Under the pieces are notes generated by a model that searched no databases, had not been told where the DNA came from, and saw only the letters and a list, made by a program, of their open reading frames with translations. A program made the translations under genes and the position numbers. A stretch of DNA of 64,000 bases. It comes from a virus. The stretch's first letter is position 1. Each line of letters begins with the position of its first letter. Shown piece by piece: positions 24,198-42,651 of this stretch. Where the stretch lies: positions 8,682-72,681 of the IMG/VR virus record IMGVR_UViG_3300032278_000002; one strand, 5' to 3'.

Positions 24198-24204
24198 AGG
24201 GGTA

Positions 24205-24221
24205 TGACCTGTGGACATCAA
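24205..24221 (+). repeat. Early-region motif copy 1 (TGACCTGTGGACATCAA)
   Basis: Recurs at 25102 and 26432 and, inverted, at 41888-41904. Confidence 0.85.
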
Positions 24222-24263
24222 TGCAGGGCATCCATTTTAACCACTAACCACGAGGATATAATT

Positions 24264-24503
24264 ATGTTCTGTCTCTATTGTTTCGGGAAGTTCATCCAAA
24301 CTTTGAATGCACTCCCAACATTCCATGACCTTGGTCCAGACCCAGTCACGGACCACATCGATGCCGACAAGGATGGCATAACCCAATGGATTCCCTTGGG
24401 CAAAACCGATGCCTTGTCTCCGTTGGTTGTCGAATGGGAAGACAACCCACCACATCCAAGCCCAGCCGAACGGGCTGAACTGCTTGAGGAGCTACGCTCA
24501 TGA
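24264..24503 (+). CDS. Early hypothetical protein
   Basis: GAGGA then ATG; 79 aa. Confidence 0.55.
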   Translation: MFCLYCFGKFIQTLNALPTFHDLGPDPVTDHIDADKDGITQWIPLGKTDALSPLVVEWEDNPPHPSPAERAELLEELRS

Positions 24504-24802
24504 AGTTCAAGACCTTGAGCTGTCAAACGATGACCAAGAAAGAACTCAAGACAATGCTCAAGCTTGAGGTTGCCTTGTCTCTTGATGACATCAAGCAACT
24601 CAAACGCATCCTTAGCAAGGGATGCCATCCCGACCATCACAAGACTCTCGGCTTGTCGAAGAAGACTTGCGAGAGGTTGATGAAGGATGTGAACCAACTC
24701 ATCAAGGACTTGGAGGACTGCACTATCCTCCACGACTCCATGGTTCGACAACTCGATGAACGAGGGCTTCATCGAGGGAACACCAAACTCCTCAAGGAAT
24801 AA
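24500..24802 (+). CDS. Early hypothetical protein
   Basis: 100 aa, ATGA coupling. Confidence 0.6.
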   Translation: MKFKTLSCQTMTKKELKTMLKLEVALSLDDIKQLKRILSKGCHPDHHKTLGLSKKTCERLMKDVNQLIKDLEDCTILHDSMVRQLDERGLHRGNTKLLKE

Positions 24803-24847
24803 CACTTTGCTTTTCATCACCATGCGTTACATCACAAAGTCCTCGGC

Positions 24848-25084
24848 AGTGAGGCACAATTGGGAGGATTGCCTTCATGTATTAGCTCTAGGAACAGAGG
24901 AGGGTGGCACCCTCGGGCAAACAGCCGATAGCAAGGAGAAAAACGGGTTGGCTCATGACCAATCCAAGCGAGAGGTACGCTTTAGTGTAATGCTACGGCT
25001 AGATAACCAAGACCTCGAAGTATCCGAGCGGGTTCCATCTCCTCGGTGGTTGCATACCACCGAGGAGAGCCTGTTTACCTCACT
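24848..25084 (+). ncRNA. Putative structured ncRNA (~240 nt), family unknown
   Basis: Closing AGUGAGG/CCUCACU helix; AGCCG(A)UAGCA/UGCUACGGCU helix; 13-bp hairpin 25038-25068; several further hairpins. Confidence 0.6.
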
Positions 25085-25101
25085 TTATTTAAGGGGTGAC
25101 A

Positions 25102-25115
25102 ACTGTGGACATCAA
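25102..25115 (+). repeat. Early-region motif copy 2
   Basis: ACTGTGGACATCAA after T-rich run and GGGG. Confidence 0.8.
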
Positions 25116-25162
25116 CGCACAACACCCCTTTTAACCACACCAACATCGAACAGAAAGACCAA

Positions 25163-25744
25163 ATGAATATATATCTAATGCTACTACGACTCGTTCTCGC
25201 AGTCGTTGACCTTGCCAAGAAGCACAGACTCAAGGCGAGGGAGATTGACCCAGTCCTTCAACTTGTCAGCGATATCTCGGAGGCAACTGTCCATGAGGAA
25301 TGCCACCGCGAGACTCTGAGTGAACGAGCCACTACTCTAGCCAACGAGCTCGCCACCGCTATTGATGACCTCGACCGGAAATACAAAGCTCAAGAGCTCA
25401 CCGAGGAACAGGGGTGGAAAGAGCGGAGGTCACTCCACACGCACATCGGACAAGCACGGGAGCGGGTGAAAGAGATGGGTAACTTGGACGAGCACAAGGA
25501 CATCTACAAGGCGGTGGCTATCTACGAGCAGGTGCTGATAGAACTTTGCGTCATGTTCCCTCGCACCAATGTACCGCTGGAGGTCGACCGCCGGAAAGGC
25601 TCGGGTACTATAAATGCCTTCCCCGAAGGAGTACTGCCCAACGGTGACACCATCCATGTTATAGAAGCTGACGGCACGGGTGCGGACATCTCCGACCTCG
25701 AAGCCTTTCGAACCGCAGCTAACAACAAGGGAGACCAATCATAA
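25163..25744 (+). CDS. Early hypothetical helical protein
   Basis: 193 aa. Confidence 0.65.
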   Translation: MNIYLMLLRLVLAVVDLAKKHRLKAREIDPVLQLVSDISEATVHEECHRETLSERATTLANELATAIDDLDRKYKAQELTEEQGWKERRSLHTHIGQARERVKEMGNLDEHKDIYKAVAIYEQVLIELCVMFPRTNVPLEVDRRKGSGTINAFPEGVLPNGDTIHVIEADGTGADISDLEAFRTAANNKGDQS

Positions 25745-26019
25745 TGGGTAAACCAAATCACTCACCGAAGGGTAAGGGCCGGAACTGGTGGTATCGCATC
25801 CGCAACATCCGAAAGGACCAAAAGGACGCCGCAGACCGCAACACCCACAAGAAATTCGTTGCGGAGGAGGAGAAGAAGAAGGAGAGCCGGGAAGCATCCA
25901 TACCATCCGTCCTCCCCGAACGCCTGCGTAACATCGGCCCAGTTAGCCCGAAGGCTACCACCAACTGGTTTGGCAAAGCATGGTCTGGCGTGAAGGGTGC
26001 TTTAAGGGGGAAGTCATGA
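25744..26019 (+). CDS. Early basic hypothetical protein
   Basis: 91 aa, TAATG coupling. Confidence 0.6.
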   Translation: MGKPNHSPKGKGRNWWYRIRNIRKDQKDAADRNTHKKFVAEEEKKKESREASIPSVLPERLRNIGPVSPKATTNWFGKAWSGVKGALRGKS

Positions 26020-26348
26020 AGGTTACGGTAGGACTCAAGATGGGCGAAGGTGTCGCTGGCTTCCTGTTCAAGTTAGGCGACCTCGTCCTTGAAAACTCTT
26101 ACTCGAACATTTCGGGTGGACCCAATGCCAAGGAGGACATGGAGGAAGCCATCGAGGCTTTCATCCGTGAGATGCGGGAGCTGGGTCATGAAATCATCGT
26201 TGACCCAAGCATCATCGCCAAACTCAAGGAAACTTATCCTTACTTCAAGCTCCCTTCCCTCGAGAACAAGGGACCATACGATGATGCCATGGCAGATGCG
26301 GATATCGAGGAAGCAGGGGAAAACCTCGCAAAGGATTGGGTAGATTAA
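26016..26348 (+). CDS. Early acidic hypothetical protein
   Basis: Start re-assigned to MKVTVG (ATGA overlap). Confidence 0.6.
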   Translation: MKVTVGLKMGEGVAGFLFKLGDLVLENSYSNISGGPNAKEDMEEAIEAFIREMRELGHEIIVDPSIIAKLKETYPYFKLPSLENKGPYDDAMADADIEEAGENLAKDWVD

Positions 26349-26376
26349 TGTTTGACCTTCGCCCCTACCAACACAC

Positions 26377-26420
26377 GACCCAGCTCATCATCGCCATGGT
26401 GAGCTGGGTCACCTTTTTTT
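26377..26420 (+). terminator. Rho-independent terminator
   Basis: GACCCAGCTCATCAT/ATGGTGAGCTGGGTC stem and T7. Confidence 0.75.
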
Positions 26421-26431
26421 GGGGGATTTCG

Positions 26432-26445
26432 CCTGTGGACATCAA
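26432..26445 (+). repeat. Early-region motif copy 3
   Basis: CCTGTGGACATCAA after T7-GGGGG. Confidence 0.85.
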
Positions 26446-26465
26446 TTTAACAACACACCAATAAC

Positions 26466-26792
26466 ATGAAGAAGCTAAAATATATTTGCGTCTACTTGCA
26501 CGGCACGACCCTCCTTGACGACTGCCTTCCCCACGAAGCCCAACTTGTTCCCCCATTCAATCCTCAAGCCGTGTGGGATGCTGGTGTGGAGGAGATGAAC
26601 GAAGCCATGCACCAAGTCGGTAATAACGAACGCAGTCGGCTACTGGCAACGTTGCTCATGCGTTTCCAACAATTTCTTCCGTCCCATGATGCCATGATAG
26701 CATTGAATGGCGTAGCCAAGCTAATGCATGACACGGACACAACGAACGGAACCGTAATTATTATTCGTAAAGACGGGAGTACCCGTCTGTAA
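26466..26792 (+). CDS. Early hypothetical protein
   Basis: 108 aa. Confidence 0.6.
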   Translation: MKKLKYICVYLHGTTLLDDCLPHEAQLVPPFNPQAVWDAGVEEMNEAMHQVGNNERSRLLATLLMRFQQFLPSHDAMIALNGVAKLMHDTDTTNGTVIIIRKDGSTRL

Positions 26793-26817
26793 CAACCAAA
26801 AAGAAAGACCAAGACCA

Positions 26818-27309
26818 ATGACAACACCCAATGATACCGACATCCGCTCTGATATTGAGCAAGAAGTCGATGAAATACAGAAGAAGAACGACAACCAACT
26901 AGTCAATCAACTGCGAGAACTGCGGGAGGGAGACCAATTCATCTCGACCGGTGGTGACGGATGTGCTTTCACCCAGCATCTCAAGTTCTTGATTCTCTTT
27001 GGAGGCACCCTTGCCGAAGAGATGCAGGCCAATCCTCAAGTAATGGGGGACAAGGAAAGCGAGAAGATACTCTTGGGCTTGGAAGTCGCAATCGAGGGAA
27101 TCAATCACATCCTCACATTACCCAGTCAATACGATGTGATTGACAGACTCATCGACCGAGTCGAAGCCTGCGATGCCGAACGCTCCAACCTTCTCAATGC
27201 AGTCGGACAGCAGGAAGCCGGAGGCGAGGCTGTCTACTTGGAAGATTGGAAAAAGGACGGCTCACTTCCCTTCACCTTCCCATCCGGAATCGGGAGAGAC
27301 CAATCATGA
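26818..27309 (+). CDS. Early acidic hypothetical protein
   Basis: 163 aa, D/E-rich. Confidence 0.65.
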   Translation: MTTPNDTDIRSDIEQEVDEIQKKNDNQLVNQLRELREGDQFISTGGDGCAFTQHLKFLILFGGTLAEEMQANPQVMGDKESEKILLGLEVAIEGINHILTLPSQYDVIDRLIDRVEACDAERSNLLNAVGQQEAGGEAVYLEDWKKDGSLPFTFPSGIGRDQS

Positions 27310-28082
27310 CAGTACTGGATACAATACTAGCGACCTTCATCCTTGTGGTGCTTGGGTTCACGCTTCGTGGTTTGGTGGCTTACGCCAGTGAACGCCAAAG
27401 ACTAAGGCTCCCCAAGCCAGTTCATGAGGACAAGGCATTCCGTGACAAGTTGGACTCAATCAAACATGAGGACAATGTCATAAGCTTCTTTGATGACCTC
27501 GGCCCTCCTCCATCCCAACTTGATATCAGCGGTTTCATGCATAACCATCGTTCGGTTGAGGAGTATCAACTCTACGGTATTCGCCGCTGCTGTCGGCTGC
27601 TCCTCGACCCAATACATCCACACAGCGAGGATTGGCCTTGGAGATGCCGAGCACGCTTGGGAGGTGTCTCCGGTTACAGGGGAAATCGCTTCCACTCCCT
27701 GCCCAAGAAGGTTCTGTATCAGCAAGCCCTTGAGTATTTGTCGGAGAATGCATCGCACCACCAGCTCCTTGATTGGAAAAGCTTCTACCGCAACCACCCC
27801 GAAGAAGAAATTGCCATGATAGCGGAATCCCAATCAATGGGCGGTCATAGCATCCCCGAAATGTCCAAGGAAATATGCCAAGCTCTCGGATCAATGCTCA
27901 CCCCCCGCCAACAACTCGACACCTTGTGCAAGGAGATATTCCCCGACATGGAACCGTACGCCGCTCGCTCTCGATTCCGATGGTACAACAGGCGATGGGT
28001 GCAAACCCATGACGAGGCAGGGACGCCTGTGGACATGGCAGACAAGGCAATCGAAAAGGGAGGACACCACGATGTCAGTTGA
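27306..28082 (+). CDS. Membrane-anchored hypothetical protein
   Basis: N-terminal TM ILATFILVVLGFTL; start re-assigned. Confidence 0.6.
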   Translation: MTVLDTILATFILVVLGFTLRGLVAYASERQRLRLPKPVHEDKAFRDKLDSIKHEDNVISFFDDLGPPPSQLDISGFMHNHRSVEEYQLYGIRRCCRLLLDPIHPHSEDWPWRCRARLGGVSGYRGNRFHSLPKKVLYQQALEYLSENASHHQLLDWKSFYRNHPEEEIAMIAESQSMGGHSIPEMSKEICQALGSMLTPRQQLDTLCKEIFPDMEPYAARSRFRWYNRRWVQTHDEAGTPVDMADKAIEKGGHHDVS

Positions 28083-28338
28083 CAACATATTGAAGAGAGC
28101 GGGGTTTCATTCCCCCGACCAAGTGAAGGAACATCTCGCCTCGATACCTAGTTCGGTCGATGGCGTCATTGGCTCCCGAAAATTCATTCATGCTCCCAGT
28201 TCCCGTCTCGTGAATGCCTTGCTGTACCAAGGAATCAATCATGTCACGCCGTTGATGCCCGGTGAGGTAAACACGGGGCGTGCGTGGAGGTGCCCGACCA
28301 ACGAAGTTCGTAATTACGAAGGAGGTTACTGTGAATAA
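28072..28338 (+). CDS. Hypothetical protein
   Basis: GGAGG then ATG (MSVDNIL). Confidence 0.55.
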   Translation: MSVDNILKRAGFHSPDQVKEHLASIPSSVDGVIGSRKFIHAPSSRLVNALLYQGINHVTPLMPGEVNTGRAWRCPTNEVRNYEGGYCE

Positions 28339-31300
28339 GTTTCTTAAGAATCTCGAGAGGGACAACCTCTACCCGTTGGGGCGTGACGCAACCCTGTCCG
28401 ATTGGAAGTCGGGCAGGTTCGTTCGCATGTTCGCTCCAAGTAGTTGGTACTCATCAATGAGGCACCGAATGGATCCCGATGCCGACCACCCAACGGGCCC
28501 GCACCGAGTAGGCGGCCAAGGTATTACGCACTCCAGTAAAGCCTCCCTGCACTTGCCTAGTTGGTTTCATGAATCATACGACCTTAAGTGGAACGCAAAT
28601 GTTTGCGGTAGACCCCTCGCAGTAAGCGAAGGGCAAAACTTCAATACCTCTTGGGGAACGAATGGCAAGAAAGATGTATTCAAGGATGATTTCCATGGTG
28701 TGCTACCCGAAGGCTACTTGTTAATTCCCCACGACTTCTTGATAGGGTCTGAGCCAAGGTGGGAATCTCCCCTGAGCCTGTTCGAATACCCATTCTATGC
28801 ACCGTTCGCCACCCTCACCTCCTTGTTTCATGACTCGGGAGCCAGCATAGTGGACAAGTGGGAGTTGGAAGATGAGTCAAAGGGGTACGAAGTACGCTAT
28901 CAACGGGAGCTTGTATCCAAAATCAATGCCAAGTGGTGGGTCGGCAAAGCCAAGACCTGTCGTCACAAGATTGAATACATACTCAAGTGGTTGCGAGACC
29001 CCACGCTTGACCTCCGCGTGAGGTGGGGAATCACTCCCAGCGATCAATTGAAAACTAGCAAAGAGAGATTCACTTGCACTGACGTGGCGGAATTGTGGAA
29101 TTCCTATGACAATCCGGAAGAACCCTACGCTTTGCGGTATAATCTTAGGAATGACTACGGTCACCAAAGAAAGGATCCAGACCAGACTAGTGGCAAGCAC
29201 CTCGATGGCACCAAGAGCATAATCTACGGACGGAGGTTTGAACTGAACAGCGACCGCGTGCGATTGCGTATCGGGATGATGCCTCGCTTGAAACAGTACA
29301 TTGTCTGCAAGGACACTTATTCACCTGCATTGGCCGCGCCTTGCAAAGAATATAAAACTGATGCAGTCGCCAGTCGCAGGGAGACTGGTTCATGGGACGC
29401 AACGCGCTTCCGTGCTCATCCCAACTACAATGACGCCCAAGACCACCTCTTCACTACTCCCATCAACTTGTTGGGAGTGTTCGGGGAACAGCGCAACTCC
29501 TTGATCAAGGACAACCTTTGCTACAAAGCTCATACGGATTCACACTATCGCAGCCCCAAAAGGTCTTGGTTCTATGTCAATACGCCCGTGCCAGATGCAA
29601 AGAGCGAGCACGGCCGTGTTAGAACAACGCTCGAGCTGGGCTGGACACACATTCGTTCGTTCAACTTGTGTTTCAAGCGGGTTGGGCAGGGACTGTATGA
29701 GTGGAAGGATTTGGGATGGGAACTCCCCGAGGAATCATATGACCCGCCGGGAGCTGAAACCAATACAAAGGCGGACAATCAACTCATGGCCGTTCGGTGG
29801 CTCACCGCACGTATGAACAAGGAGTTGAAGGGACGTTGGTATCTGCGAACAACTGGGCCCGCTTACACAAACCTCCCAATTAAAGGCACGAACAGAAACA
29901 GCACCCATCAACAGATAGCGTGGCTCGGCGAGTGGATCAACATGCTGGAGACGTTGATGGAAACTGACCGCCGAGGCGCCGAGTACTTGGCTCTGATGAT
30001 GAACCAACTAATTGACCCGAAAAGAACAACTGGTTGGGACAGTCCCCGGTATCAATTGAATGCCGAGATGAAATTCATCAAAGGCAGTCACCCCGGTCGC
30101 CTTCGAAAATTGATAAATGACCCCAATATACTGACACCGCCCACGGGCTTGCCCGATTCTGAGAGAGAATCACTACACAAAGCACGCAACGTGTTCTATA
30201 AGTATCTTCCAGCTTTTACCGTCAAAATGTTCAAGAAAGCGAAAAAGGATTACCTCAAGCAGAGGCATCATGAGGATTGTGACCAAGTCTTGACTTGCAA
30301 ATGCCCACCCAACGGAGGCTTGAATATTTCCTACAAGTACTTGAAGCAGTTATATCGCAAGAGATGTAACCTAGCCGTCAAGTGGCACATATCCGACAAC
30401 GACTGTCAAAGTGGAAAAGTATTCAATGCATTGACTGGTTCCCTTGTCGTCCTACTCCCTCGAAACAGGGTATCTCATAAGCAGAGCCGAGACGGACCCA
30501 CGATACTCAATACCATGAACGTTGATTATTCCGGCGGATTCATTGTGTTGTCCAACGGAACCTTGGATTCAATGCACGTGTCCGAAGCTACCGGTCACCA
30601 TCAGCGGGGACAATATCCGGAAGGGGATTCTCCGCCATTCGCAGGGCCCGTGAGGTTCAGATGCACCGTTGATGCGGTAAGGGCTTTCCGCGATCCATAT
30701 GTCAGCGCCTTGTCCTCCAAAGAATTCAAAGGATACCCAGCCACGTACGCATACGACCGCCCCTATTGCGTGGTAAGGAAATCAGAGAGACAATCAACCC
30801 CCGACTGGTTGTTGGTTCGATCCCATGCCAGCGTGACCGAGGTTCGCCCGAAAGAAGAGATAGCTCATGACCTCCGAGTCCATCAAATTACGTACGATAG
30901 GCTCAAGTTGGAACTGGCCAATGGCGTGGATGCCGCCGGCATGCCGCTGAGCAAGCGATCTCGGTTGGATTATGTGAACTGCTACCTCCCTCGGTTGGAG
31001 AATCAACTTAAGTTCCCTCGGGAATTCAACCAACACAGGGTGTCCAAGGGGTTTGACGAACAACTTCAATTAACTAACTCGATAGGTCAGCTTTACCACG
31101 ACCGATCAATTGGACAATTTCCGGTCATGAGTACGGCGTATGCAGTGCTATTTATGCCTGTGGACATGTTCGATGCCTCTCCAATGGAAATATACAACTG
31201 GATGAAAGATTATTGTGACAAGTTGATCACCCGCTCCCTTCGCAGTCGCAGGTATTGCTACGCCAATTGCGTGTGGCAATCACTACATAAGCTACGGTGG

Positions 31301-31522
31301 TGGGCCAAGTCTTTTGGGCTGACTCGGAAATTCAACCGCCAGTTTCCCATGAACAAGTTGGAGAATATATACATGAAACAACTGATTCGGTACCGAGTGA
31401 AAAATTTATGTCCGCTTACTGGGCGGCCAATGAACAGAACAACAAATGTAGATACCTTCCGTGAACGCGAGGGGTATGTACGAAACGTAAAGGAAGAAGA
31501 AATATGGAAATACCAACGCTAA
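28331..31522 (+). CDS. Large hypothetical protein (~1060 aa)
   Basis: Long ORF; GGAGG then GTG at 28331; no motif recognised. Confidence 0.75.
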   Translation: MNKFLKNLERDNLYPLGRDATLSDWKSGRFVRMFAPSSWYSSMRHRMDPDADHPTGPHRVGGQGITHSSKASLHLPSWFHESYDLKWNANVCGRPLAVSEGQNFNTSWGTNGKKDVFKDDFHGVLPEGYLLIPHDFLIGSEPRWESPLSLFEYPFYAPFATLTSLFHDSGASIVDKWELEDESKGYEVRYQRELVSKINAKWWVGKAKTCRHKIEYILKWLRDPTLDLRVRWGITPSDQLKTSKERFTCTDVAELWNSYDNPEEPYALRYNLRNDYGHQRKDPDQTSGKHLDGTKSIIYGRRFELNSDRVRLRIGMMPRLKQYIVCKDTYSPALAAPCKEYKTDAVASRRETGSWDATRFRAHPNYNDAQDHLFTTPINLLGVFGEQRNSLIKDNLCYKAHTDSHYRSPKRSWFYVNTPVPDAKSEHGRVRTTLELGWTHIRSFNLCFKRVGQGLYEWKDLGWELPEESYDPPGAETNTKADNQLMAVRWLTARMNKELKGRWYLRTTGPAYTNLPIKGTNRNSTHQQIAWLGEWINMLETLMETDRRGAEYLALMMNQLIDPKRTTGWDSPRYQLNAEMKFIKGSHPGRLRKLINDPNILTPPTGLPDSERESLHKARNVFYKYLPAFTVKMFKKAKKDYLKQRHHEDCDQVLTCKCPPNGGLNISYKYLKQLYRKRCNLAVKWHISDNDCQSGKVFNALTGSLVVLLPRNRVSHKQSRDGPTILNTMNVDYSGGFIVLSNGTLDSMHVSEATGHHQRGQYPEGDSPPFAGPVRFRCTVDAVRAFRDPYVSALSSKEFKGYPATYAYDRPYCVVRKSERQSTPDWLLVRSHASVTEVRPKEEIAHDLRVHQITYDRLKLELANGVDAAGMPLSKRSRLDYVNCYLPRLENQLKFPREFNQHRVSKGFDEQLQLTNSIGQLYHDRSIGQFPVMSTAYAVLFMPVDMFDASPMEIYNWMKDYCDKLITRSLRSRRYCYANCVWQSLHKLRWWAKSFGLTRKFNRQFPMNKLENIYMKQLIRYRVKNLCPLTGRPMNRTTNVDTFREREGYVRNVKEEEIWKYQR

Positions 31523-32595: not shown

Positions 32596-33893
32596 CACGG
32601 ATAAACGTAGCACCAACATCAGCTCCCCTCAGCAAAGAGGACCAGAAAGACCTTATCGACAAGGGCACCCTCCGAATCAGACGCATTCAATGTCGGAAGC
32701 TGGTCATGGAAAAGCCCTTTTGGGCGGCGATCATGTATCAATTGTTGATGTCGGTTCGCATGGGAGAGGGCACTGCTTGGACGGACGGCCGCCGACTGGT
32801 GTTCGATGCTCAATTCATCGACTTGTTGACCGAAGAACAACTACTCGGACTCATCCTACACGAACTAGCTCACGTGGTGTTCATGCACCACCTTCGCCGA
32901 GGACCCCGGGACGGTCAACTCTGGAACATGGCGGCTGATTATTGCATAAATTGGCTGTTGGTTCATGTCGACAGTCAAGTCCTGCCCGATGGGGCTCTTC
33001 TCGAGGATGAGTACAAGGATGACACGGCTGAACAAGCTTACGCCAAGTTGTACAAGAAATATCCGCCGCCGCCGCAGGGGCATGGGAACCCTCCCGGACC
33101 TTGCAATGGTGGGCTGGGAGGTCAGCAACCACCGGGTGTGCCCGGCGTACCTGGCCAAGATTGGGGCGAAGTACGCGATGCGACTGGGGAAGGGGACGTA
33201 AAATTAACCGATTCCCAAAAGAAAGCGGCCGAGCAGCTGATGGCAGTGTCAATTCGACAAGCGATGAACACCGCCAGACGCCAAGGCAAGATGCCGGGTG
33301 GCTTGCGGGAGAAATTCGAGGGGTTACTCAAACCTACCGTTGATTGGAAGAAAATTCTCAACGACTTCTTGTCAGAAAGATTCCCCTTGGATTACAGTTG
33401 GACCACGGTCAATACTCGACGCAGCCTCCCCGACTCCTGCCTCCCGGGCAGGGACGGAATCCAATGGGCACGGGTTGCCGTTGCCATCGACACGTCCGGT
33501 TCCGTGACAGTGGATGAGATCCGGCAAATGTGCTCGGAGATAATGCACTGTCTGGACTGCTATGATTCAAATGGTCAAGGGATGGAAATTGACGTCCTTT
33601 ACTGTGACACTGAGTTACACGGCCATGAAACACTGACGTCCGGCGACATGCCGTACCAAGAAATCAAGGGAGGCGGAGGCGGTACCATGTTCTCTCCAGT
33701 CATGGAGGAGTTCAAGGACCGTCAATACCTCACCGAAGACCCAGCCGCCTTGATCTACATGACGGACGGCTGCTGTGATGATTTCGGGGATGATCCCGAA
33801 ATCCCTGTCCTCTGGATGATGGTCGGGGATTACTATAATAAAACATTCAAACCACCGTTCGGCACTGTTAGCCGGATGGAACTTGCTAACTAG
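32592..33893 (+). CDS. Metallopeptidase-vWA protein (DUF2201-like)
   Basis: TAWTDG, HELAH..H..R, WNMAADYCIN; MIDAS DTSGS, GGGGTMF, MTDG. Confidence 0.9.
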   Translation: MTRINVAPTSAPLSKEDQKDLIDKGTLRIRRIQCRKLVMEKPFWAAIMYQLLMSVRMGEGTAWTDGRRLVFDAQFIDLLTEEQLLGLILHELAHVVFMHHLRRGPRDGQLWNMAADYCINWLLVHVDSQVLPDGALLEDEYKDDTAEQAYAKLYKKYPPPPQGHGNPPGPCNGGLGGQQPPGVPGVPGQDWGEVRDATGEGDVKLTDSQKKAAEQLMAVSIRQAMNTARRQGKMPGGLREKFEGLLKPTVDWKKILNDFLSERFPLDYSWTTVNTRRSLPDSCLPGRDGIQWARVAVAIDTSGSVTVDEIRQMCSEIMHCLDCYDSNGQGMEIDVLYCDTELHGHETLTSGDMPYQEIKGGGGGTMFSPVMEEFKDRQYLTEDPAALIYMTDGCCDDFGDDPEIPVLWMMVGDYYNKTFKPPFGTVSRMELAN

Positions 33894-33903
33894 GAAAGGA
33901 AAA

Positions 33904-34875
33904 ATGACTAAGCTACATATGGCTACTAGCCAAAACGACCCCAGAAATGGGAAAATACTACAAATCGCCAAGCTCAAGGGACTTCGTCCCCACTTCACCA
34001 AGTGGGTCAACGGTATTCTGATTGAGCAGGGCTTCGTTGACTCCGATGGAACGGCTAAGGGCGGATTAGGCCACGCTGTCCGTGGGCCTTTGGTCGGTGA
34101 CGACCGGGTCGAGGAGTTCTACGATAGAGTAATCAATGGATTGGAGGCCGTTGAACCTCTTGCGCCCGGAGATCCCTTGCCCGAGGGACATCCGTTTGCA
34201 ATTCCCCTCGCCGAGTTGATGGCAGGAGAAAAGGAGACGCCTGTGGACCGCACGAGCACAATAGAAAAATACACGGCTGACTCCGAAGAAGTTGAAGCCC
34301 ATTCCAAGAATGATGGCGAGGTTCGAGGCGTTGACAGCAAGGTCGATCCGCTCGATGCCGCTCAACCCTGCCCCGAGCTGGCTTGCCAAGTGGATGAACA
34401 AGTCGGTGACCCAAATCCATTGGCCCACGTAACTGCTGATGAACTCGATGGTTTCCGGGAATTCATGACGGGAGCTAAGGATACTGCCAAGGAAGCGCTC
34501 AAGGAAGTGGTTGTTCTCGGTGAATCCAATATGCTCATGGAGGGGAGACTCTCCGCTTTGGAGCAACAAAACTCCGCTCAACGACTCGACAAGGTCGAAG
34601 ACATACTCGGGAATTGCTCGAATCCGTGTCAAGGTGATCCCGACGAGACTCCAGCTCAGACACTCAATGTGATTGAGGCCCGACTCAGCCAAGCGGAGGT
34701 ATCTCTCCAAGACTTGGGGGACTCTCTCCCCGGGGGAGCTAGCAATCGTGATGGCGCGGACATTGCTGCAATTACCGCAAGCATAACGCACGCCGTGCTT
34801 GATGAAGTAGTCAAGCTGTGTGTTACCCGTAACGATCTTCAAGTTTTACTCAACCTAAATAAGGAAGGCAAATAA
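33904..34875 (+). CDS. Acidic hypothetical protein with coiled coil
   Basis: ~320 aa; AGGA upstream of the ATG. Confidence 0.65.
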   Translation: MTKLHMATSQNDPRNGKILQIAKLKGLRPHFTKWVNGILIEQGFVDSDGTAKGGLGHAVRGPLVGDDRVEEFYDRVINGLEAVEPLAPGDPLPEGHPFAIPLAELMAGEKETPVDRTSTIEKYTADSEEVEAHSKNDGEVRGVDSKVDPLDAAQPCPELACQVDEQVGDPNPLAHVTADELDGFREFMTGAKDTAKEALKEVVVLGESNMLMEGRLSALEQQNSAQRLDKVEDILGNCSNPCQGDPDETPAQTLNVIEARLSQAEVSLQDLGDSLPGGASNRDGADIAAITASITHAVLDEVVKLCVTRNDLQVLLNLNKEGK

Positions 34876-35735: not shown

Positions 35736-36309
35736 CCTAAAAACCAAAAGAAAGAACAGAATAGTGAAAACAATAGTAGAAAAACCAATAACCGTACGTG
35801 ATCGCGTACGGAATGTAATAGAGAATAACTCAACACTTCCCACGCTGGACGTCATGTCGCAGGAAATGGGAATAAACAAGGCGAACCTATCCAATGAAAT
35901 CTCGGTCATGCGAGGCTTGGGGTGGTCAATTGACATAATTGGCGAGAGGGGCAATCCCCGAGGTTACGTGGTAACTCCTCCTCACACCACATGGACCCCG
36001 GATGAAAAGAGGAGCTCACTAGCTCGGTCAATGGAGCAATCGGGAATATATCGAGCGGAAGATGGAACGTTTCGAGCTGACCAGAAGAAGAAGGCCAAGA
36101 AGAAGCAACACCGGAAAACAAGGCGAGAGCTTGCGGGAAAGCAACTGCAAGAAACAATTGCCCGACGCCGGAACCCGCAGCTCGACATAATACTGCACGT
36201 AACTGACTTGGATGCCAAGCTGACCCGGTACGCCAAATACTTCGTAGTTCTACTGGGGGTGATATCAGTCAGTATCGCCGCCCTCGCAATACACACAATA
36301 ATCAACTGA
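35725..36309 (+). CDS. wHTH protein with C-terminal TM helix
   Basis: PTLDVMSQEMGINKANLSNEISVMRGLGW; hydrophobic C-terminus. Confidence 0.55.
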   Translation: MPFNLKTKRKNRIVKTIVEKPITVRDRVRNVIENNSTLPTLDVMSQEMGINKANLSNEISVMRGLGWSIDIIGERGNPRGYVVTPPHTTWTPDEKRSSLARSMEQSGIYRAEDGTFRADQKKKAKKKQHRKTRRELAGKQLQETIARRRNPQLDIILHVTDLDAKLTRYAKYFVVLLGVISVSIAALAIHTIIN

Positions 36310-36329
36310 TCTGGGAGGATCACATCAAT

Positions 36330-36965
36330 ATGGCTATAAAAACCAACAACGCATTGTCAGCTTTCGGTAAGAAGGCGGCAACTACATCAACGAAAGTCTA
36401 CTCAAAGCTACCGGACCCGGACGGCACTATCTCCAAGATGGTCGACCAACGGGTGGATTGCGCTAGCACCGAGAAGGCCGCTTCCGGCACCAAGAAACAA
36501 ATCGATGGTGTCTTGAAGAACTACGGCCTCGATACTTGGGTGGATAACAACGAGGATAAGGACCTCACCGAGGACACGTTCCAAGCGGACGGCAAGTCCG
36601 GCTCGGTGAAGGTCATATTCACCAGCCGTTATTACGACCTAACCATCGACCGAGAAGATCCGAAGTCAGCCCAACGCCTCAGCGAAATCCAATCACTGTT
36701 GGGCCTATCATACGGACGGTTCGTCACGGAGAAGTTCAAGCTGGACGTGGATGGTTCCGCCATACCGGCCGACCAACAAGAAGACTTCCTCGGCGAGCTC
36801 GCGGAACTTCTCGAGAAGCACGGATCCAACCCGGCGGAAGCTGTCCAAGTGAAGGAGGTGCTGGCCATCAGCAAGAAGTTCCATGGGGAACGACACTCCA
36901 TACTGTCCCAAGAAGAGAACAAGCACTTCCACGACTTGTGGTCCTGTGTAGTGGCGGTAAAGTAA
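36330..36965 (+). CDS. Hypothetical protein
   Basis: 211 aa, GGAGG SD. Confidence 0.7.
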   Translation: MAIKTNNALSAFGKKAATTSTKVYSKLPDPDGTISKMVDQRVDCASTEKAASGTKKQIDGVLKNYGLDTWVDNNEDKDLTEDTFQADGKSGSVKVIFTSRYYDLTIDREDPKSAQRLSEIQSLLGLSYGRFVTEKFKLDVDGSAIPADQQEDFLGELAELLEKHGSNPAEAVQVKEVLAISKKFHGERHSILSQEENKHFHDLWSCVVAVK

Positions 36966-37693
36966 TGCAAGACAACATTCCGGGATTACTACCAACGGAC
37001 CCGGATTCATTACCGTTCTTCCATCAGCGTCCCATGACGGGTGGAAGATTCGAGCAGCAGTTGGGGTTCATCCCCCAGCTGCTTAGCTTGAAGTATAACG
37101 GCTGGATGGCTCTTATCCATCTGACATCCATGAGGATGTTCAACCGACATGGTCAGCCGTTAAGCATCAGTGATGAGTTCGCATCCGTCATCAATACGTT
37201 GAGCAGACACTCGATCCGTATTCCGCACCAGCAATCCGATCCAGCGTGGCTTGTTTGCGAGGCACTCCAACGTCGACATGACATCGGGCGAGGCTCTTTG
37301 TTCGTAATTGACTATTGGGACTGCCTTTCCACTCAGGATCCACATGCTGGGACGCATTGGAAAAACTCAAAGGGACGTTACTCGGCAGGGACCAGCAAAT
37401 CCTCGATGCATGCTCCTCCATTCATAGAGCGGCATGAAAGGCTGAGGACCTTTCTCCCTGTCCATGACTGGAGAGACAAGCCGCGGGAAAACAACGTGTA
37501 TCTCATTGATCAATTCGCGGCCTCGGATGAAAGGGCCACGGATATCTGGGAAGAAATCCCCGAGGTCAATGAACGTTGGGGCTGTGAGTTCTATGAAGGA
37601 TTCGTGGCCACGCAACGCAACAGTCAGCTGAAACCGCAGTACAACTCAAACAACAAATGTAGCCATATTATAAAGTATAGACATGATAACTAA
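36965..37693 (+). CDS. ATP-dependent ligase/capping-enzyme-family nucleotidyltransferase (NTase domain only)
   Basis: Motif I KYNGW, FNRHG, III VCEAL, IIIa FVID, IV EGFV, V IIKYR at the C-terminus; start re-assigned. Confidence 0.65.
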   Translation: MQDNIPGLLPTDPDSLPFFHQRPMTGGRFEQQLGFIPQLLSLKYNGWMALIHLTSMRMFNRHGQPLSISDEFASVINTLSRHSIRIPHQQSDPAWLVCEALQRRHDIGRGSLFVIDYWDCLSTQDPHAGTHWKNSKGRYSAGTSKSSMHAPPFIERHERLRTFLPVHDWRDKPRENNVYLIDQFAASDERATDIWEEIPEVNERWGCEFYEGFVATQRNSQLKPQYNSNNKCSHIIKYRHDN

Positions 37694-40196
37694 TGAAAAT
37701 CCAGTACTAACCTACTCCATTGACGGGTTGATTCAAATCAACTTGATGGATGACCAACGAGTCGAGCTCGGCAAGGAGTGGTGTGAAAAACTCGAGTGCT
37801 TCGATGGCAAGATCGCCGAAGAAGTTATTCGTGAGCAATACTTGAGGGAACATGCTCAAGAAATAATAGATGCCTATAACGATGACTTGTTCAAGATAGC
37901 AGTATCAGTCGAGATCAAGTTGAACGTAGCGTTAAAGGCATACGGGAAAGCCTGCGCTCCATTGATGCCCCCAACTGACTATGAGCTCATCGCCTACGTG
38001 GATGGGTTGCAGAAGGGGTTGGTTTGTGACGACGCCGTATCCGGCATGTCGTTCACCAAGGGATGGACATATCCTGTCCGCACGGAATTCTTCGAGTATT
38101 CGGAGAAGTTCGTAGTCAATCGTCCTTATTACGATGAAAAGACCAAGAGCTATCTGAAAAAGAAGCACCGGATCAGCCGTAAAGGGAAGGATCGAGCCAT
38201 CGTTGTTCGGGACGACTTCGGCGAGGAGAACTACTTCTTGGAAAAGCCGACCCTGTTTCCAACGAGCCGGCTGCCCTCGAATGGGCAATACAGACTGCAC
38301 GACATCGATTGTATGTGGCTGGCTTTCCAACGGCCTAAGATATCCACGGTCAAGGAGACCTTGAGAGAAACGTATGATGATGTGATCAATCGGCTCGAGG
38401 TATATGAAATGATGTGCGGATTCGAATACTATGAAGGTCAGCGAGATTTCATTGCTCGCATGGCGTGCCGGGACTTCGGCATAGTGGGCGCCGCCTGCGG
38501 ATGCGGGAAATCCTTGATGGCTATCACATTGATGAAGGTGAAGGAGGATGCCTTGAAAATCTTACTCATAGCACCGGCATCAACTGTGACCAGCGGAAAT
38601 GGGTACACTCCCGCTCAATGGGCGCAAGAGTTTGCCGACTTCGCTCCCGACATCAACACCTTCGAGTTGTTCTCGTTCGATCACTACGAGTTGTTGAAGA
38701 AACGGTACAAGGGCAAGCTGCCCCCCGGAGTGTACATCACTTACCCCGAAGCCATGTTTACTTCGGGCGCTCGGGAGTACTTACCGCAAACATGGAAAGA
38801 GGAAGGCCGAAAGGATCCTTGGCTGGTCGAACGAAAGTTCCGGAAAATCATGAAGATGCCGCCTGTGGACGAGGACAATCTCATACATGAGGAGCAGTAT
38901 CACAAGGGGCTTGGACAAACTTGCGGAGAAGGGGAGATACTCTGCGTTGCGAAACCTAGTCTGAGTTCGGTGGTGTCCCAAGAACAAGGCGACTTCGACA
39001 TGATCGTATTGGACGAGGCCCACACCGTGGCGGCGAACATAAAGTCACAGAGAGGTCGCGCGTTCCTTCGAATGCAGTCAAAGTACCGGTACTGCCTATC
39101 GGCTACTCCCATTCCCAATAATATTGGCGACTTGTTCGGGATAATGGGATGGGTCACCGTTCCCAAGTGGTACAGGGGGAACAAGCGCTCAGTTAGCTTC
39201 CCTTACTCAATTGAGCAAAAGGGTAACTTCGAATCCGCTTACTTGACCTACGAAGATGACTTGACCGCCACCATGCGAGCATCGGTCAAATATGTCAAAG
39301 GTCGGCAAAGAAGAGTGCGAAGACGGTCCAACATAGTGAGTCAACCCACTAGCCTGCTCAAACTACTGAAGCCTACCATTGGATATGTTGACAAAAGCGA
39401 CTGTCGGAACGACATGCCCAAATGTATCATCAATGAAGTTAGGGTTCCGTTGGGACAAATACAAGCGCGGGCGTACCACATTGCCAAGAGTATGGCGAGA
39501 GGGGCCTTTGCCCGATACAGCCAGCTTAGGCAAGTGTGCGCGGACCCTTCCGCTTATGGATCGCCTCCGGAAAATCCAAAAACCATGACCGTGCTGCAAT
39601 TAGCGCTGCAGTGTCTCGAGAAGCACGAGCAGGTGGTAATCGTGTCGGCACGCCACGGAATGACCAACGCGTTGGAGGAAAAATTCTGGGAGTCTGGAGT
39701 AACGACTTCTCGATTGGACGGGTCTATGTCGTCGAGAATGCAAAGCCAAGAATCACAGGATTTCAAGGATCAACGAACACAGATTATGTTGATGGGAATC
39801 AAATGTGCGATGGGTCATTCCTACCCGCAGTGCCCCAACTTGATATGTACGAGCTTGGAGTGGAGTTACGGCACCAAGGAACAAGCCTTCGGGCGTGTGT
39901 TCAGAGTCAACTCTCCCAAGACAGTCAATATCTGGTGTGTGCTGCATGCGGAATCCATCGAGGATACCATGTTCTCCCGAGTCAGCGACAAACAGGAGTC
40001 AGCATTGCTCTGTCTCCATGGAAAACGAATGACTCGCACACCCAAGTTCTCCACACCGGAGGACATCTTGGCGGAACACCTCATTGATTACGCCGCCGGG
40101 GAAACGATAGATGAACAAGTTTGCATAAGGGAATGGCCGTCCTTACGCACCAAGCTTGCCGATGCGGCCCAAATATTCGACCCAACACTAGCATGA
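37683..40196 (+). CDS. SNF2-family helicase with long N-terminal extension
   Basis: GCGKS, LDEAH, SATPIPN, RLDGS, QAFGRVFRV. Confidence 0.88.
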   Translation: MITNENPVLTYSIDGLIQINLMDDQRVELGKEWCEKLECFDGKIAEEVIREQYLREHAQEIIDAYNDDLFKIAVSVEIKLNVALKAYGKACAPLMPPTDYELIAYVDGLQKGLVCDDAVSGMSFTKGWTYPVRTEFFEYSEKFVVNRPYYDEKTKSYLKKKHRISRKGKDRAIVVRDDFGEENYFLEKPTLFPTSRLPSNGQYRLHDIDCMWLAFQRPKISTVKETLRETYDDVINRLEVYEMMCGFEYYEGQRDFIARMACRDFGIVGAACGCGKSLMAITLMKVKEDALKILLIAPASTVTSGNGYTPAQWAQEFADFAPDINTFELFSFDHYELLKKRYKGKLPPGVYITYPEAMFTSGAREYLPQTWKEEGRKDPWLVERKFRKIMKMPPVDEDNLIHEEQYHKGLGQTCGEGEILCVAKPSLSSVVSQEQGDFDMIVLDEAHTVAANIKSQRGRAFLRMQSKYRYCLSATPIPNNIGDLFGIMGWVTVPKWYRGNKRSVSFPYSIEQKGNFESAYLTYEDDLTATMRASVKYVKGRQRRVRRRSNIVSQPTSLLKLLKPTIGYVDKSDCRNDMPKCIINEVRVPLGQIQARAYHIAKSMARGAFARYSQLRQVCADPSAYGSPPENPKTMTVLQLALQCLEKHEQVVIVSARHGMTNALEEKFWESGVTTSRLDGSMSSRMQSQESQDFKDQRTQIMLMGIKCAMGHSYPQCPNLICTSLEWSYGTKEQAFGRVFRVNSPKTVNIWCVLHAESIEDTMFSRVSDKQESALLCLHGKRMTRTPKFSTPEDILAEHLIDYAAGETIDEQVCIREWPSLRTKLADAAQIFDPTLA

Positions 40197-41212
40197 GTAT
40201 TAACAAAGCAGTTAACGCGTGGTCCGAATGGTTGGGGGAGACTCTCTCCCCCGCCCTTCGGGACACATATGAAAAACGACTGAAAGCTTTCGCCAAGAGG
40301 CGGAAGCTCAAGGACGTCACTTGGAAAACCATCAACCAGTTTCTGAGAGACAAAGGCAAACGCGGGTTGAAGTACAGTACGATCAAGCAATATATCAGCG
40401 CTTTGAAAAGCTTCTGCAAATTTGCTTACGCCGAGGGCTTGCTGGACAAAGACCCGTCTTCACTGATAAAGATACGGCCGCAAACCTTAGCCATACGACA
40501 GCTCGAGGATGAGCCGCGTGTTCCGTTCACCTACGACGAGTATGAGTCAATCTTGGCGTACGTCACGATGTGGGAACATGGGGCAAAGCAGATGAAGACA
40601 CGGCAATGGGCCACCTTCTGGAAGATTGCGGTTCCCTTGTCGTACTGGACGGGAGTTCGTCTGCATGACTGCGCTTGCCTCGAGGTAGGTAATTTCTATT
40701 ACGAGTTGTTTGACTACGAGCTGCCGAAATTTGCAGGCATGCTTTTTTGGACGAAGAAGAGAAACAAGAGGGTCTTTCTACCACTGGATAATCCGCTGAT
40801 AGGTCACCGTCATTTGGTGGACATACCGAACCAATTGAAAAGAAGGTCATGGATCGCCGCCGCCTCCGGTGCAGTATCCCACCAATACGGAAATGCCGAG
40901 AAACTGGACGATCTCAACGGGGAGTTCTATTTCCCCCTGCAATATAGACTTATCGACTCTCCTCAAAGAAACCAATTCTCCCAGCGATTCAAAAGAATCA
41001 CCGACTCGTTGGGCATCCATGGAAAAAGTTTCCATTGCCTAAGGCATTCGTTCGCCACCCGCTTGGAAGAAGCTGGCGTAACTTACGAGGATATCGCTAG
41101 ATTTATTGGACATGGTCAAACGATAACCACCCAAGGGTATTGCCACGGGCAAGAGTTGCCCGATTTAGGTATCCCGAACCAAGCTAGAAAATTCTTCAAC
41201 CCGAAATACTGA
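40193..41212 (+). CDS. Tyrosine recombinase/integrase
   Basis: TGVR, K, FHCLRHSFATRL, IGH, TTQGY; start re-assigned (ATGA overlap). Confidence 0.92.
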   Translation: MSINKAVNAWSEWLGETLSPALRDTYEKRLKAFAKRRKLKDVTWKTINQFLRDKGKRGLKYSTIKQYISALKSFCKFAYAEGLLDKDPSSLIKIRPQTLAIRQLEDEPRVPFTYDEYESILAYVTMWEHGAKQMKTRQWATFWKIAVPLSYWTGVRLHDCACLEVGNFYYELFDYELPKFAGMLFWTKKRNKRVFLPLDNPLIGHRHLVDIPNQLKRRSWIAAASGAVSHQYGNAEKLDDLNGEFYFPLQYRLIDSPQRNQFSQRFKRITDSLGIHGKSFHCLRHSFATRLEEAGVTYEDIARFIGHGQTITTQGYCHGQELPDLGIPNQARKFFNPKY

Positions 41213-41481
41213 TGACTAAAGTAAACTACAAAGTAGGCACCCGCTACCCGTATCGCTGTTCTAACTGCGGACACTCGGGACGTGCGCGCCGTCGATATCA
41301 CTGTTCCAACTGCGGACGCACGGGGCATAACAAAAGGAACTGCCCGGAACCGGAAAACAAATACAGCTGGGTTTTGACAAAGGAGTACGAGAAATATCGC
41401 GTATTCATAAGAAGTTTGCCAACATGGATGACAAGCCGATTTCCGATATGGCATCCGAAGAACCCGAGGAATGTAACATGA
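41212..41481 (+). CDS. CCHC zinc-knuckle protein
   Basis: CSNCGRTGHNKRNC = CX2CX4HX4C, plus a degenerate upstream copy. Confidence 0.65.
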   Translation: MTKVNYKVGTRYPYRCSNCGHSGRARRRYHCSNCGRTGHNKRNCPEPENKYSWVLTKEYEKYRVFIRSLPTWMTSRFPIWHPKNPRNVT

Positions 41482-41690
41482 ACATAGACATCTACTTACA
41501 CGACCCAAAAGCCCACGACTCGTACTACGCTTTGCCGAAATGCATAGATTGCGATGAGGAATTGGACGAAGATCCGCAAGAACTACCGGATCCCGTTCGA
41601 TGTCCGGATTGTCATGCTAATTCGGATAACGTTCTTGATGATACCGAAGAAATAATAGATGCCTTGACGGCTCAAGGTCGGTATCCTTGA
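41478..41690 (+). CDS. Acidic Zn-ribbon protein
   Basis: CIDC...CPDC; start re-assigned. Confidence 0.55.
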   Translation: MNIDIYLHDPKAHDSYYALPKCIDCDEELDEDPQELPDPVRCPDCHANSDNVLDDTEEIIDALTAQGRYP

Positions 41691-41709
41691 GGTTGCGTTG
41701 TGGTTACGC

Positions 41710-41744
41710 GCCCGTCCCTCTTCGGAGGGGCGGGCTTTTTTTTT
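41710..41744 (+). terminator. Early-region terminator
   Basis: 11-bp GC stem, cUUCGg loop, T9. Confidence 0.9.
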
Positions 41745-41772
41745 GCTTTGATTCCAAAGGAAGCTCCATTGT

Positions 41773-41801
41773 TTGACGAATCATGCCTTCGATGGTAGAA
41801 T
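41773..41801 (+). promoter_or_regulatory. Sigma70-type promoter
   Basis: TTGACG-17 bp-TAGAAT with extended TG. Confidence 0.75.
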
Positions 41802-41808
41802 ACTCTTT

Positions 41809-41878
41809 GTCTAGTTTGCCTTCGCTCTCGCGGCTGTCGCTACGCCAGACTTGCCGGCCGGGAGCGGAGGTTTTTTTT
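41809..41878 (+). ncRNA. Putative ~70-nt sRNA
   Basis: Between the promoter and T8; 12-bp stem with plus-strand G-U pairs and inner stems; no ORF. Confidence 0.65.
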
Positions 41879-41887
41879 GGATTTTTT

Positions 41888-41904
41888 TTGGTGTCCACAG
41901 GTCA
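41888..41904 (-). repeat. Inverted copy of the early-region motif (TGACCTGTGGACACCAA)
   Basis: 16/17 identical to 24205-24221. Confidence 0.8.
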
Positions 41905-42651
41905 ACACAACAGGAATGCGACGGCCCACAAATCCTCTACCTCGTTTAGGTTGTGCCGTAAGTAATCGGGCTCCGCATCCCGTGGCTGGTGTGATGCCGC
42001 ACGGCCTCTGCTCATCTTATGGACATATTCTTCTCTAGTTTTGCAAAAATAATGGTTTATCTGCGCCACGTCGTCTGGCCCGTCGGGATTGAAGGGACCA
42101 CGACCGACATGTAAATTCGTATCAACCCATTTGAGATTAGAATAATGAGGGTTTCTATACACGGGATTCTTACTTAGCTTGACCATTGTTTTTACGTGCT
42201 TATTAACCCCGATACCCCTTTTCGTGAACCTATCTATAACACTATAATTCCCTTTTGAGACTTCTTTATGCCCGTTGTTTCCGAAGATATGCCAATTCAC
42301 CGCAATGCTATCGTACTCCCCATAGCATTGAATGAAATTTTTAATGGAATCGTGTTTCTTTAGGACGAGAAACTCATCGACGTCTATGAAACATGCCCAA
42401 TCATAATTCCCTTTATTCGATTCGATGAAAAGGTTATAAGCCTTCATCTGCGGTCGCTCCAATATGGGCTTATGGGCAGCGGTCTTCCCGTCATGTTCAA
42501 CCAAATGGACGTTTTCCCCGATTACCCCCTCAGCTCTCCATTCGTTTTGATAAATCCATATATCGTCAAACCCCAGAGCGGTATGATAATCAACCCATTC
42601 TTGGATATAATGGTCTTCGTTTTTGGCTATACATACCAAAGCTAATTTCAT
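41902..42651 (-). CDS. Glycosyltransferase (GT92/GT2-like, GT-A fold)
   Basis: CIAKNEDHYIQEWVDYH..LGFD, FIDVDEFL, INHYFCK. Confidence 0.85.
   Translation of the reverse strand: MKLALVCIAKNEDHYIQEWVDYHTALGFDDIWIYQNEWRAEGVIGENVHLVEHDGKTAAHKPILERPQMKAYNLFIESNKGNYDWACFIDVDEFLVLKKHDSIKNFIQCYGEYDSIAVNWHIFGNNGHKEVSKGNYSVIDRFTKRGIGVNKHVKTMVKLSKNPVYRNPHYSNLKWVDTNLHVGRGPFNPDGPDDVAQINHYFCKTREEYVHKMSRGRAASHQPRDAEPDYLRHNLNEVEDLWAVAFLLC

Follow-up and report, generated by a model that had tools for sequence, protein, structure and literature searches.

Localized single-strand interruptions of the DNA have been documented in a few cultured phage groups (tf, LUZ24-like, T5 and phiKMV-like phages), and their purpose is enigmatic even there. 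Here we compare with them an oriented nine-base word, CCTGTGGAC, which recurs in a 64,000-nucleotide (nt) stretch of viral DNA from IMG/VR record IMGVR_UViG_3300032278_000002. This stretch, hereafter the window, comprises bases 8682-72681 of a viral contig of 72,681 bp, and all the positions below are counted from its first base. The closest described case is the Pseudomonas phage tf (Glukhov et al. 2012, PMC3517423; record HE611333). According to the available text of that paper, 14 nicks have been mapped in tf at TACT/RTGMC, all in the top strand, 11 of the 14 in the early half, with a spacing that widens; just three further single-substitution variants of the word are reported there, and these are un-nicked. 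Matching words stand at similar positions in LUZ24, PaP3 and MR299-2 (its Table 1).

The same text describes the known nick systems as strictly one-stranded. In T5/BF23 and the phiKMV-like phages the nicks are site-specific, confined to one strand and denser toward one genome end, the nick word being of 7 bases in T5 and bipartite, of 19 bases, in phiKMV; the T5 nicking genes have been mapped to the late region, and for the tf nickase no name is given in the text available (PMC3517423). Its authors guessed that localized nicks are widespread, a feature that was, as far as this text goes, never surveyed (PMC3517423). Nick sites are detectable as an excess of sequencing-read ends, which PMC4482731 describes for the LUZ24-like phage Ab22.

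We have also examined the tf record itself. The tf word is TACTGTGAC, and it has CTGTG(G)AC in common with the word of the present phage. In HE611333 it provides the start codon (ATG or GTG) annotated for tf_04, tf_15 and tf_41, and it overlaps the stops of tf_09 and tf_14. Eight of the 14 nick sites lie inside genes, and none at the annotated sigma-70 promoters.

A nine-base word confined to the early operon

The genes of the phage form two convergent blocks. The plus-strand block (early) extends over 21231-41690, while the minus-strand block (late) starts at 21173, runs leftwards, wraps around the contig ends through an open reading frame (ORF) of more than 4087 codons, and ends at 41902. 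We have counted seven exact copies of CCTGTGGAC in the window, where 0.57 are expected (standard deviation 0.69, largest value 3), and none of 100 dinucleotide shuffles reached seven. An earlier reading of the window, made from the letters alone and called the sequence-only reading below, had put the chance expectation under one and had seen no exact copy outside the region; both statements hold, as the whole 72,681-bp contig contains the same seven copies and no extra. The reversed-word control gave 0/0. An eighth copy, ACTGTGGAC at 25102, has one mismatch at base 1, and the degenerate pattern CTGTGGAC brings it in besides the exact copies.

All eight copies are within 24208-41901, that is, in 17.7 kb of the 72.7-kb contig. 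Seven are on the plus strand and one is on the minus strand, and every one is on the mRNA-sense strand of its local operon, site 8 being located in the 3' tail of the late operon. The word is kept exact and near-variants are rare: matches with at most one mismatch are not in excess (16 against 13.9 expected), the nine one-mismatch copies genome-wide are in the chance range, and shorter cores such as TGTGGAC are near their expected counts after removing the eight copies. Free of coding constraint, the full form of the word is CCTGTGGACAYCAA. A literature search for the word itself has returned primer matches only. The eight sites are as follows.

24208-24221, plus strand: site 1, CCTGTGGAC + ATCAA, in the first intergenic gap of the block; ATG 24264 is 56 nt downstream
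25102-25115, plus strand: site 2, ACTGTGGAC + ATCAA; ATG 25163 is 61 nt downstream
26432-26445, plus strand: site 3, core + ATCAA; ATG 26466 is 34 nt downstream
28026-28034, plus strand: site 4, in-frame Pro-Val-Asp at the 3' end of gene 27306-28082; ATG 28072 is 46 nt downstream
31157-31165, plus strand: site 5, in-frame Pro-Val-Asp in the gene of a 1063-aa orphan protein
34240-34248, plus strand: site 6, in-frame Pro-Val-Asp in gene 33883-34875
38862-38870, plus strand: site 7, in-frame Pro-Val-Asp in the SNF2 helicase gene
41888-41901, minus strand: site 8, core (41893) + ACCAA, directly following the TGA stop (41902-41904) of the last late-block gene

The sequence-only reading had located the exact copies at 24208, 26432, 28026, 31157, 34240 and 38862 on the plus strand and 41893 on the minus strand, and we have recovered all of them; the in-frame Pro-Val-Asp (PVD) that it assigned to the in-gene copies is likewise found in all four, written CCT-GTG-GAC. 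Its description of 25102 as intergenic needs qualification. Formally this site lies within a 114-codon ORF (24822-25166), and the stretch is probably non-coding, because it is homologous to two clearly intergenic cassettes. Successive copies are separated by 894, 1330, 1594, 3131, 3083, 4622 and 3031 bp, so that the spacing does widen along the region, as had been claimed, while a monotonic increase is not seen. The next start codon is 34-61 nt away from sites 1-4 and 347-1259 nt away from sites 5-7, and site 8 faces no gene.

Inside the block, the motif is present within a conserved cassette in each of the three intergenic gaps that reach 100 nt, and it is missing from a fourth, which measures 25 nt. 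The order of the shared blocks is TCAC, T-run, GGGG, 6-7 variable bases, CCTGTGGACATCAA and TTTAAC, with the TTTAAC block shifted by 14 nt at site 3. The three cassettes are the following.

24182-24244, plus strand: cassette 1, with the shared blocks, preceded by a 10-bp hairpin at 24158-24183
25076-25138, plus strand: cassette 2, with the shared blocks, preceded by a 13-bp hairpin at about 25037-25069
26406-26455, plus strand: cassette 3, with the shared blocks, preceded by a 15-bp hairpin at 26377-26410, which has a T-run next to it

Only hairpin 3 is a canonical terminator. The non-coding copies share 14 nt. At sites 1-3 the GTG of the motif stands 8-9 nt after GGGG and opens nine-codon ORFs (MDINAGHPF, MDINAQHPF and MDINLTTHQ, respectively). 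The mini-ORF of site 3 stops 1 nt before the next ATG, and the gene downstream of it has no Shine-Dalgarno sequence of its own. The gaps of the late block yielded no shared motif, and Rfam and transfer RNA scans gave no match. At position +31, an A is present in 11 of 12 aligned sites, which is probably due to chance or composition. Searches of IMG/VR with the cassette matched 2 and 6 loci, and all of these were rejected as unrelated in protein content.

Around cassette 2, the 360 nt of 24803-25162 hold no convincing gene; there are the 114-codon ORF, which has no Shine-Dalgarno sequence, and several mini-ORFs of 3-11 codons, one of them behind a strong GGAGGA. This may be a regulatory or non-coding RNA region.

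For the copies inside genes, selection acts on the DNA word at synonymous positions, and not on the peptide. The plus block encodes six PVD tripeptides, four of which are spelled CCTGTGGAC, while none of the five in the minus block has this spelling. Codon usage predicts 0.028 such spellings per PVD. When synonymous codons are shuffled within the block, 0.13 copies are obtained on average, and none of 3000 shuffles reaches four. The common reading frame of the in-gene copies can be explained by coding cost, since the other two frames would require Trp or Cys. Variation in the population carries no power here, because only 20 positions are listed as differing between four runs and the window, and none of them is in a motif.

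Conservation and turnover in a relative

A relative of the phage was available as two metagenome contigs (L012 and L013), which overlap at 99.9% identity over 1008 nt and were joined to 9.4 kb. The joined sequence is syntenic with 29.5-38.9 kb of the window. At the protein level, the identity to the phage is 78% for the ATPase, 78.5% for the SNF2 helicase and 46% for the product of gene 33883-34875. No relative closer than ~30% was seen in IMG/VR, and none was found among genome contigs and GenBank phages.

A motif scan of relatives was a check proposed by the sequence-only reading, and the word is indeed present. The 9.4 kb carry four exact copies in partly conserved positions, three on the plus strand and one on the minus strand, against ~0.07 expected. 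The plus copies are in the ATPase gene, in the homologue of gene 33883-34875 and in the SNF2 gene, and the minus copy is antisense. Three sites can be compared between the two phages, and one is identical, one is shifted by ~48 nt and one is absent. The identical one is site 7, where the same 9-mer occupies the homologous SNF2 codons within a differing peptide (MP-PVD-EDNLIH in the phage and LR-PVD-IMNLPT in the relative); on the 3' side the copy of the relative continues with ATCAT, close to the non-coding extension ATCAA. The counterpart of site 6 is displaced: a block of perfect nucleotide identity follows in both phages, and the copy of the relative stands ~48 nt farther from it on the upstream side. 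At the position of site 5 the word is absent, the relative reading CCAGTGGAA. On the other hand, the copy in the ATPase gene of the relative is new, as the present phage spells the same PVD CCGGTGGAT. This mix of kept, shifted, lost and new copies is of the kind that Table 1 of PMC3517423 documents for LUZ24, PaP3 and MR299-2, where similar positions and turnover go together. Considering also the absence of the tripeptide from farther SNF2 homologues (see below), we conclude that turnover accompanies the maintenance of the word and that the clade concerned is narrow.

Just downstream of site 6, at 34249-34286, ~35 nt are identical to the relative amid ~70% identity elsewhere, and the assembly graphs of two runs branch at this block. 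It may stem from recent recombination or be an element that acts at the nucleotide level. Loose contig ends at 34245 in two runs were considered as breakpoints and rejected, since they are due to the co-occurring relative, with which an identical block of 35-42 nt is shared.

Possible functions of the word

Overall, the word is real, is confined to one 17.7-kb operon, lies on nearly one strand, is kept at synonymous positions, and is partly conserved in position in the relative. As to its function, we place first, though tentatively, recognition of the word by an enzyme that the phage encodes and that acts on one specific DNA strand; by analogy with tf this would most likely be a nickase. Such an enzyme would put localized single-strand interruptions into the early-operon sense strand of the packaged DNA, with the cut presumably falling within the word. 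As the maker of the cut we infer a late endonuclease, for which two genes would be candidates.

51486-51734, minus strand: HNH_3 endonuclease of 82 aa (PF13392, E 7.8e-9) in the late block, candidate nickase
45707-46156, minus strand: PD-(D/E)XK endonuclease of 149 aa (PF11645, E 2.9e-11) in the late block, second candidate nickase

A nickase site would account for the exactness of the word, the strand bias, the copies deep in genes that synonymous selection keeps, the spacing, the placements at gene boundaries and the turnover, and for this reason we have ranked it above a promoter, which comes second. The sequence-only reading had suggested polar binding or nick sites that pace DNA entry, with the inverted copy as a stop. 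Of this suggestion we prefer the half on polar binding or nick sites, which closely matches the localized nicks documented in tf and the LUZ24-like phages.

Several observations weigh against a nickase. One copy here and one in the relative are on the opposite strand, and there is no plus-strand copy in the 51 kb of the minus block, compared with 3 of 14 in the late half of tf. Sites 1-3 are embedded in a longer conserved cassette 34-61 nt before start codons, an extension that the tf sites are without and that fits a promoter better. No protein of the phage resembles any tf protein, so the likeness between the two words may be due to chance. Phages often carry HNH and PD-(D/E)XK genes for purposes other than nicking. 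In addition, the four farther SNF2 homologues (P0012-P0015, 57-67% identity, one of them on an 87-kb contig) all lack PVD, which means that the SNF2 site is young. That is, a nickase leaves the cassette at sites 1-3, the opposite-strand copies and the empty late block unexplained.

It is rather unlikely, in our estimate, that sense-strand nicks would also have a job, as entry or start points that pace the expression of the early module or its entry, with a boundary at the early/late convergence formed by the inverted copy in its full length. If this were true, it would give a testable function to the long-enigmatic phage nicks, and would do so in a phage whose lineage has no relation to the cultured nicked phages and whose conserved cassette (T-run, GGGG, motif) is absent from tf. 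An exact asymmetric 9-mer that favours one strand and the early operon, is selected at synonymous positions and turns over in a relative makes up a signature which can be read from sequence only and could be used to look for such systems in metagenomes. In this orphan marine phage lineage it points to a candidate.

Next to the nickase in rank, and possible though we would not expect it, is a class-specific promoter or another signal at which transcription of the early operon begins. The host polymerase, modified by the phage, would recognise it, or else the phage would have a polymerase or sigma factor of its own that has escaped recognition. In that case transcription units would begin at sites 1-4, with sites 5-7 boosting transcription from within. 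Such a role is suggested by the cassettes, which occupy all three intergenic gaps of at least 100 nt, by the 34-61 nt between sites 1-4 and the start codons, by the co-orientation of seven of the eight copies with the genes, and by the 14 nt common to the non-coding copies. The strong hairpins before sites 1-3 recall the promoter/stem-loop cassettes (PeSLs) of T4-type phages (PMC2839356, PMC4122927, in the parts available). Upstream, at 22849-23086, there is a separate regulatory region of host type with nine ATGACATG repeats, which suggests a temporal cascade. Many ORFs are orphans, those of the 1063-aa and >4087-aa proteins among them.

The sequence around the sites fits a promoter less well. 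No -10-like element is in register, TTTAAC being displaced at site 3 as described above, and a sigma-70 scan flags none of the seven sites covered. Sites 5-7 and the copies of the relative are hundreds of bases from start codons and are still selected, site 8 faces no gene, and the relative has its antisense copy. Among the predicted proteins, Pfam detects neither an RNA polymerase nor a sigma family; three of them (13697-14956, 17413-19191 and 20067-21173) were scanned with PHROGs only and match a helicase, a DNA polymerase and an exonuclease, respectively. If the copies are promoters nevertheless, they would define how genes are regulated in a phage clade for which Pfam shows neither a polymerase nor a sigma factor. 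Two specific forms were tried and rejected: TGGACA as a sigma-70 -35 element has no -10 element in register, and for sigma-54 the GG-to-GC spacing is wrong (judged by eye only).

More doubtful than a promoter is a binding or cleavage site with another role, such as a site of a phage regulator, a polar roadblock, or an RNA-level signal (processing, or the start of a mini-ORF) on the sense transcript. All eight copies being mRNA-sense in their local operon agrees with this, and so do the nine-codon ORFs that the GTG opens 8-9 nt behind GGGG at sites 1-3, with the stop 1 nt before the next ATG at site 3. Sites 5 and 7 have no Shine-Dalgarno-like sequence, the minus copy of the relative is antisense, no Rfam family matches and no candidate binding protein was found; moreover, cleavage or roadblocks inside genes would harm the phage's own genes.

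We regard as very improbable the shufflon-like system of nested inversion and excision that the sequence-only reading had put forward, in which the motifs would be crossover sites for the neighbouring tyrosine recombinase.

40121-41212, plus strand: tyrosine recombinase (phage integrase) with RxxxHxLRH...Y motifs, near the end of the plus block, ending 676 bp from the inverted copy

The layout behind this proposal is correct: the block is bracketed exactly by a 17-nt inverted pair with 16/17 matches (24205-24221 and 41888-41904, sites 1 and 8), the inverted copy is at the early/late convergence, the recombinase is intact with its gene end 676 bp away (~700 bp had been stated), and the in-gene copies share one reading frame. 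The length of the pair is not exceptional, since inverted pairs of equal quality without the motif occur by chance in the same 20 kb (I8, 19 nt, 95%; I13, 17 nt, 94%; I18, 16 nt, 100%; I24, 16 nt, 94%). An alignment of 12 sites has near-zero information content beyond the 9-mer, so there are no recombinase-binding arms. Seven copies are direct repeats within or between needed genes, and recombination among them would delete genes. The breakpoint search, made on the assembled contigs of four runs, revealed, in the 32 of 128 pieces listed, no joint from an inversion or a deletion at any of the sites. The test is weak, since rare forms can be lost from contigs; across sites 2, 4, 5 and 8 the contigs run through in the reference order. 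With its SAM-like N-terminal domains the recombinase resembles an ordinary phage integrase, and no link between it and the motif was found.

The DnaA box is a TTWTNCACA-type 9-mer that occurs in clusters and is orientation-free. Variants of it recruiting the host DnaA are an equally remote explanation: the reverse complement of the word does share GTCCACA with the box, and six of the eight sites are one mismatch from the form TTGTCCACA named in the sequence-only reading (all are within 1-2), but all eight have 2-3 mismatches to the classical consensus TTATCCACA, the invariant CC falls outside the box while box positions 1-2 vary, and the strand bias and the kb-scale spread, with sites 0.9-4.6 kb apart, are unlike DnaA-box clusters.

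Genome setting and comparison with known systems

CheckV rates the contig as complete, and it has no terminal repeat. The phage occurs in marine metagenomes from at least four studies, and among the 20 listed runs that contain it, none is an RNA run. The late block encodes an exonuclease, a family-A DNA polymerase, a primase, helicases, a large terminase, a portal and tail proteins, and its last part, ending at 41902, is a low-GC cluster of glycosyl- and sulfotransferases. The plus block begins with a switch-like region with the nine ATGACATG repeats (22849-23086), becomes densely packed with small orphan genes from 24146 on, and codes also for the 1063-aa orphan, a MoxR-like ATPase, a VWA/metallopeptidase protein, the SNF2 helicase, the tyrosine integrase and zinc-ribbon proteins.

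Some neighbouring features are worth recording in their own right. The ATGACATG repeats (four on the plus and five on the minus strand) are in and around a 169-nt gap between two small minus-strand ORFs; AT-rich, host-type promoter-like hexamers accompany them, and the window holds just two more copies. This array looks like lysis/lysogeny switch operators. Near the start of the same block, the stretch 21963-22319 (plus strand) weakly matches DUF1599, 'nucleotide modification associated domain 1'; the match (E 1.9e-4) falls below the cut-off of Pfam and is a hint that bases of the DNA are modified. Within a zinc-ribbon gene, at 41251-41324 (plus strand), a 29-nt unit is repeated at 45-nt spacing with 86% identity, which duplicates a CxxC knuckle.

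The 1063-aa protein (28331-31522, plus strand) is basic, rich in Trp, Arg and His, and of no family. It had no match in Pfam, PHROGs, a search of 5.8 billion proteins, the Atlas or PDB, and a full HMMER search returned the protein itself and two marginal matches. Apart from the syntenic gene of the metagenome relative (32% over 300 aa) and one protein of 851 aa, it has no relatives. The AlphaFold model, with a mean pLDDT of 30.8, is unusable.

On the minus strand, the giant ORF (51736-63999, continuing to genome positions 1-429) has at least 4087 codons and is cut by the end of the contig. Its N-terminus may be encoded by an open frame of 143 codons with which the contig begins, the join having a frame offset of 1 nt. 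No sequence match was obtained for it in Pfam, PHROG or PDB, and the 82-aa HNH_3 gene follows directly after it. The low-GC cluster at the end of the late block (41902-45676, minus strand, GC 41%) comprises a family-2 glycosyltransferase, a sulfotransferase, a DUF5672 protein, a Stealth-CR2 protein and one unknown; possibly it is a moron that modifies the surface or the DNA. In the 211-nt convergence gap there are two tandem plus-strand terminators, each a hairpin plus T-run (41707-41745 and 41819-41888), and the late operon is without a canonical terminator of its own on the minus strand.

Considering the known systems together, the R64 shufflon (Rci with sfx sites) and the fim switch are inversion systems driven by tyrosine recombinases. 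They resemble this locus in having a tyrosine recombinase gene nearby and short repeats in coding sequence in one frame. Their repeats are alternately inverted, whereas those here are mostly direct and are distributed over 17.7 kb of unrelated genes, with no conserved arm and with no rearranged form seen in the contigs of the four runs.

T7-type phages use class-specific promoters. These and the T4-type PeSLs (PMC2839356, PMC4122927) are like the present sites in being repeated, co-oriented signals upstream of early genes, often after a stem-loop. In contrast to them, the core here is of 9 bp and GC-balanced, has no -10 element and comes with half of its copies far from gene starts, and Pfam reveals no cognate polymerase or sigma factor.

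Among the nicked phages, T5/BF23 and the phiKMV-like phages have defined terminal repeats, which the contig here lacks, and their consensus words differ. The tf phage is the nearest, even though the present phage, with 72.7 kb, a marine origin and an integrase, is unlike it, and the tf nicks are physically mapped while the word here is known from its sequence. With regard to strand, all 14 sites of tf are on the top strand, compared with seven of eight on the plus strand here and three plus and one minus in the relative. In both phages, an asymmetric word of nine bases is present in about 8-14 copies with rare single-mismatch variants, and the copies cluster in the early operon with widening spacing, where early and late blocks are convergent. 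Some copies are deep inside genes and others are at start or stop codons (here the GTG after GGGG, and site 8 abutting a stop). Finally, for the tf group as well as for the phage described here, the positions in relatives are similar, not identical.

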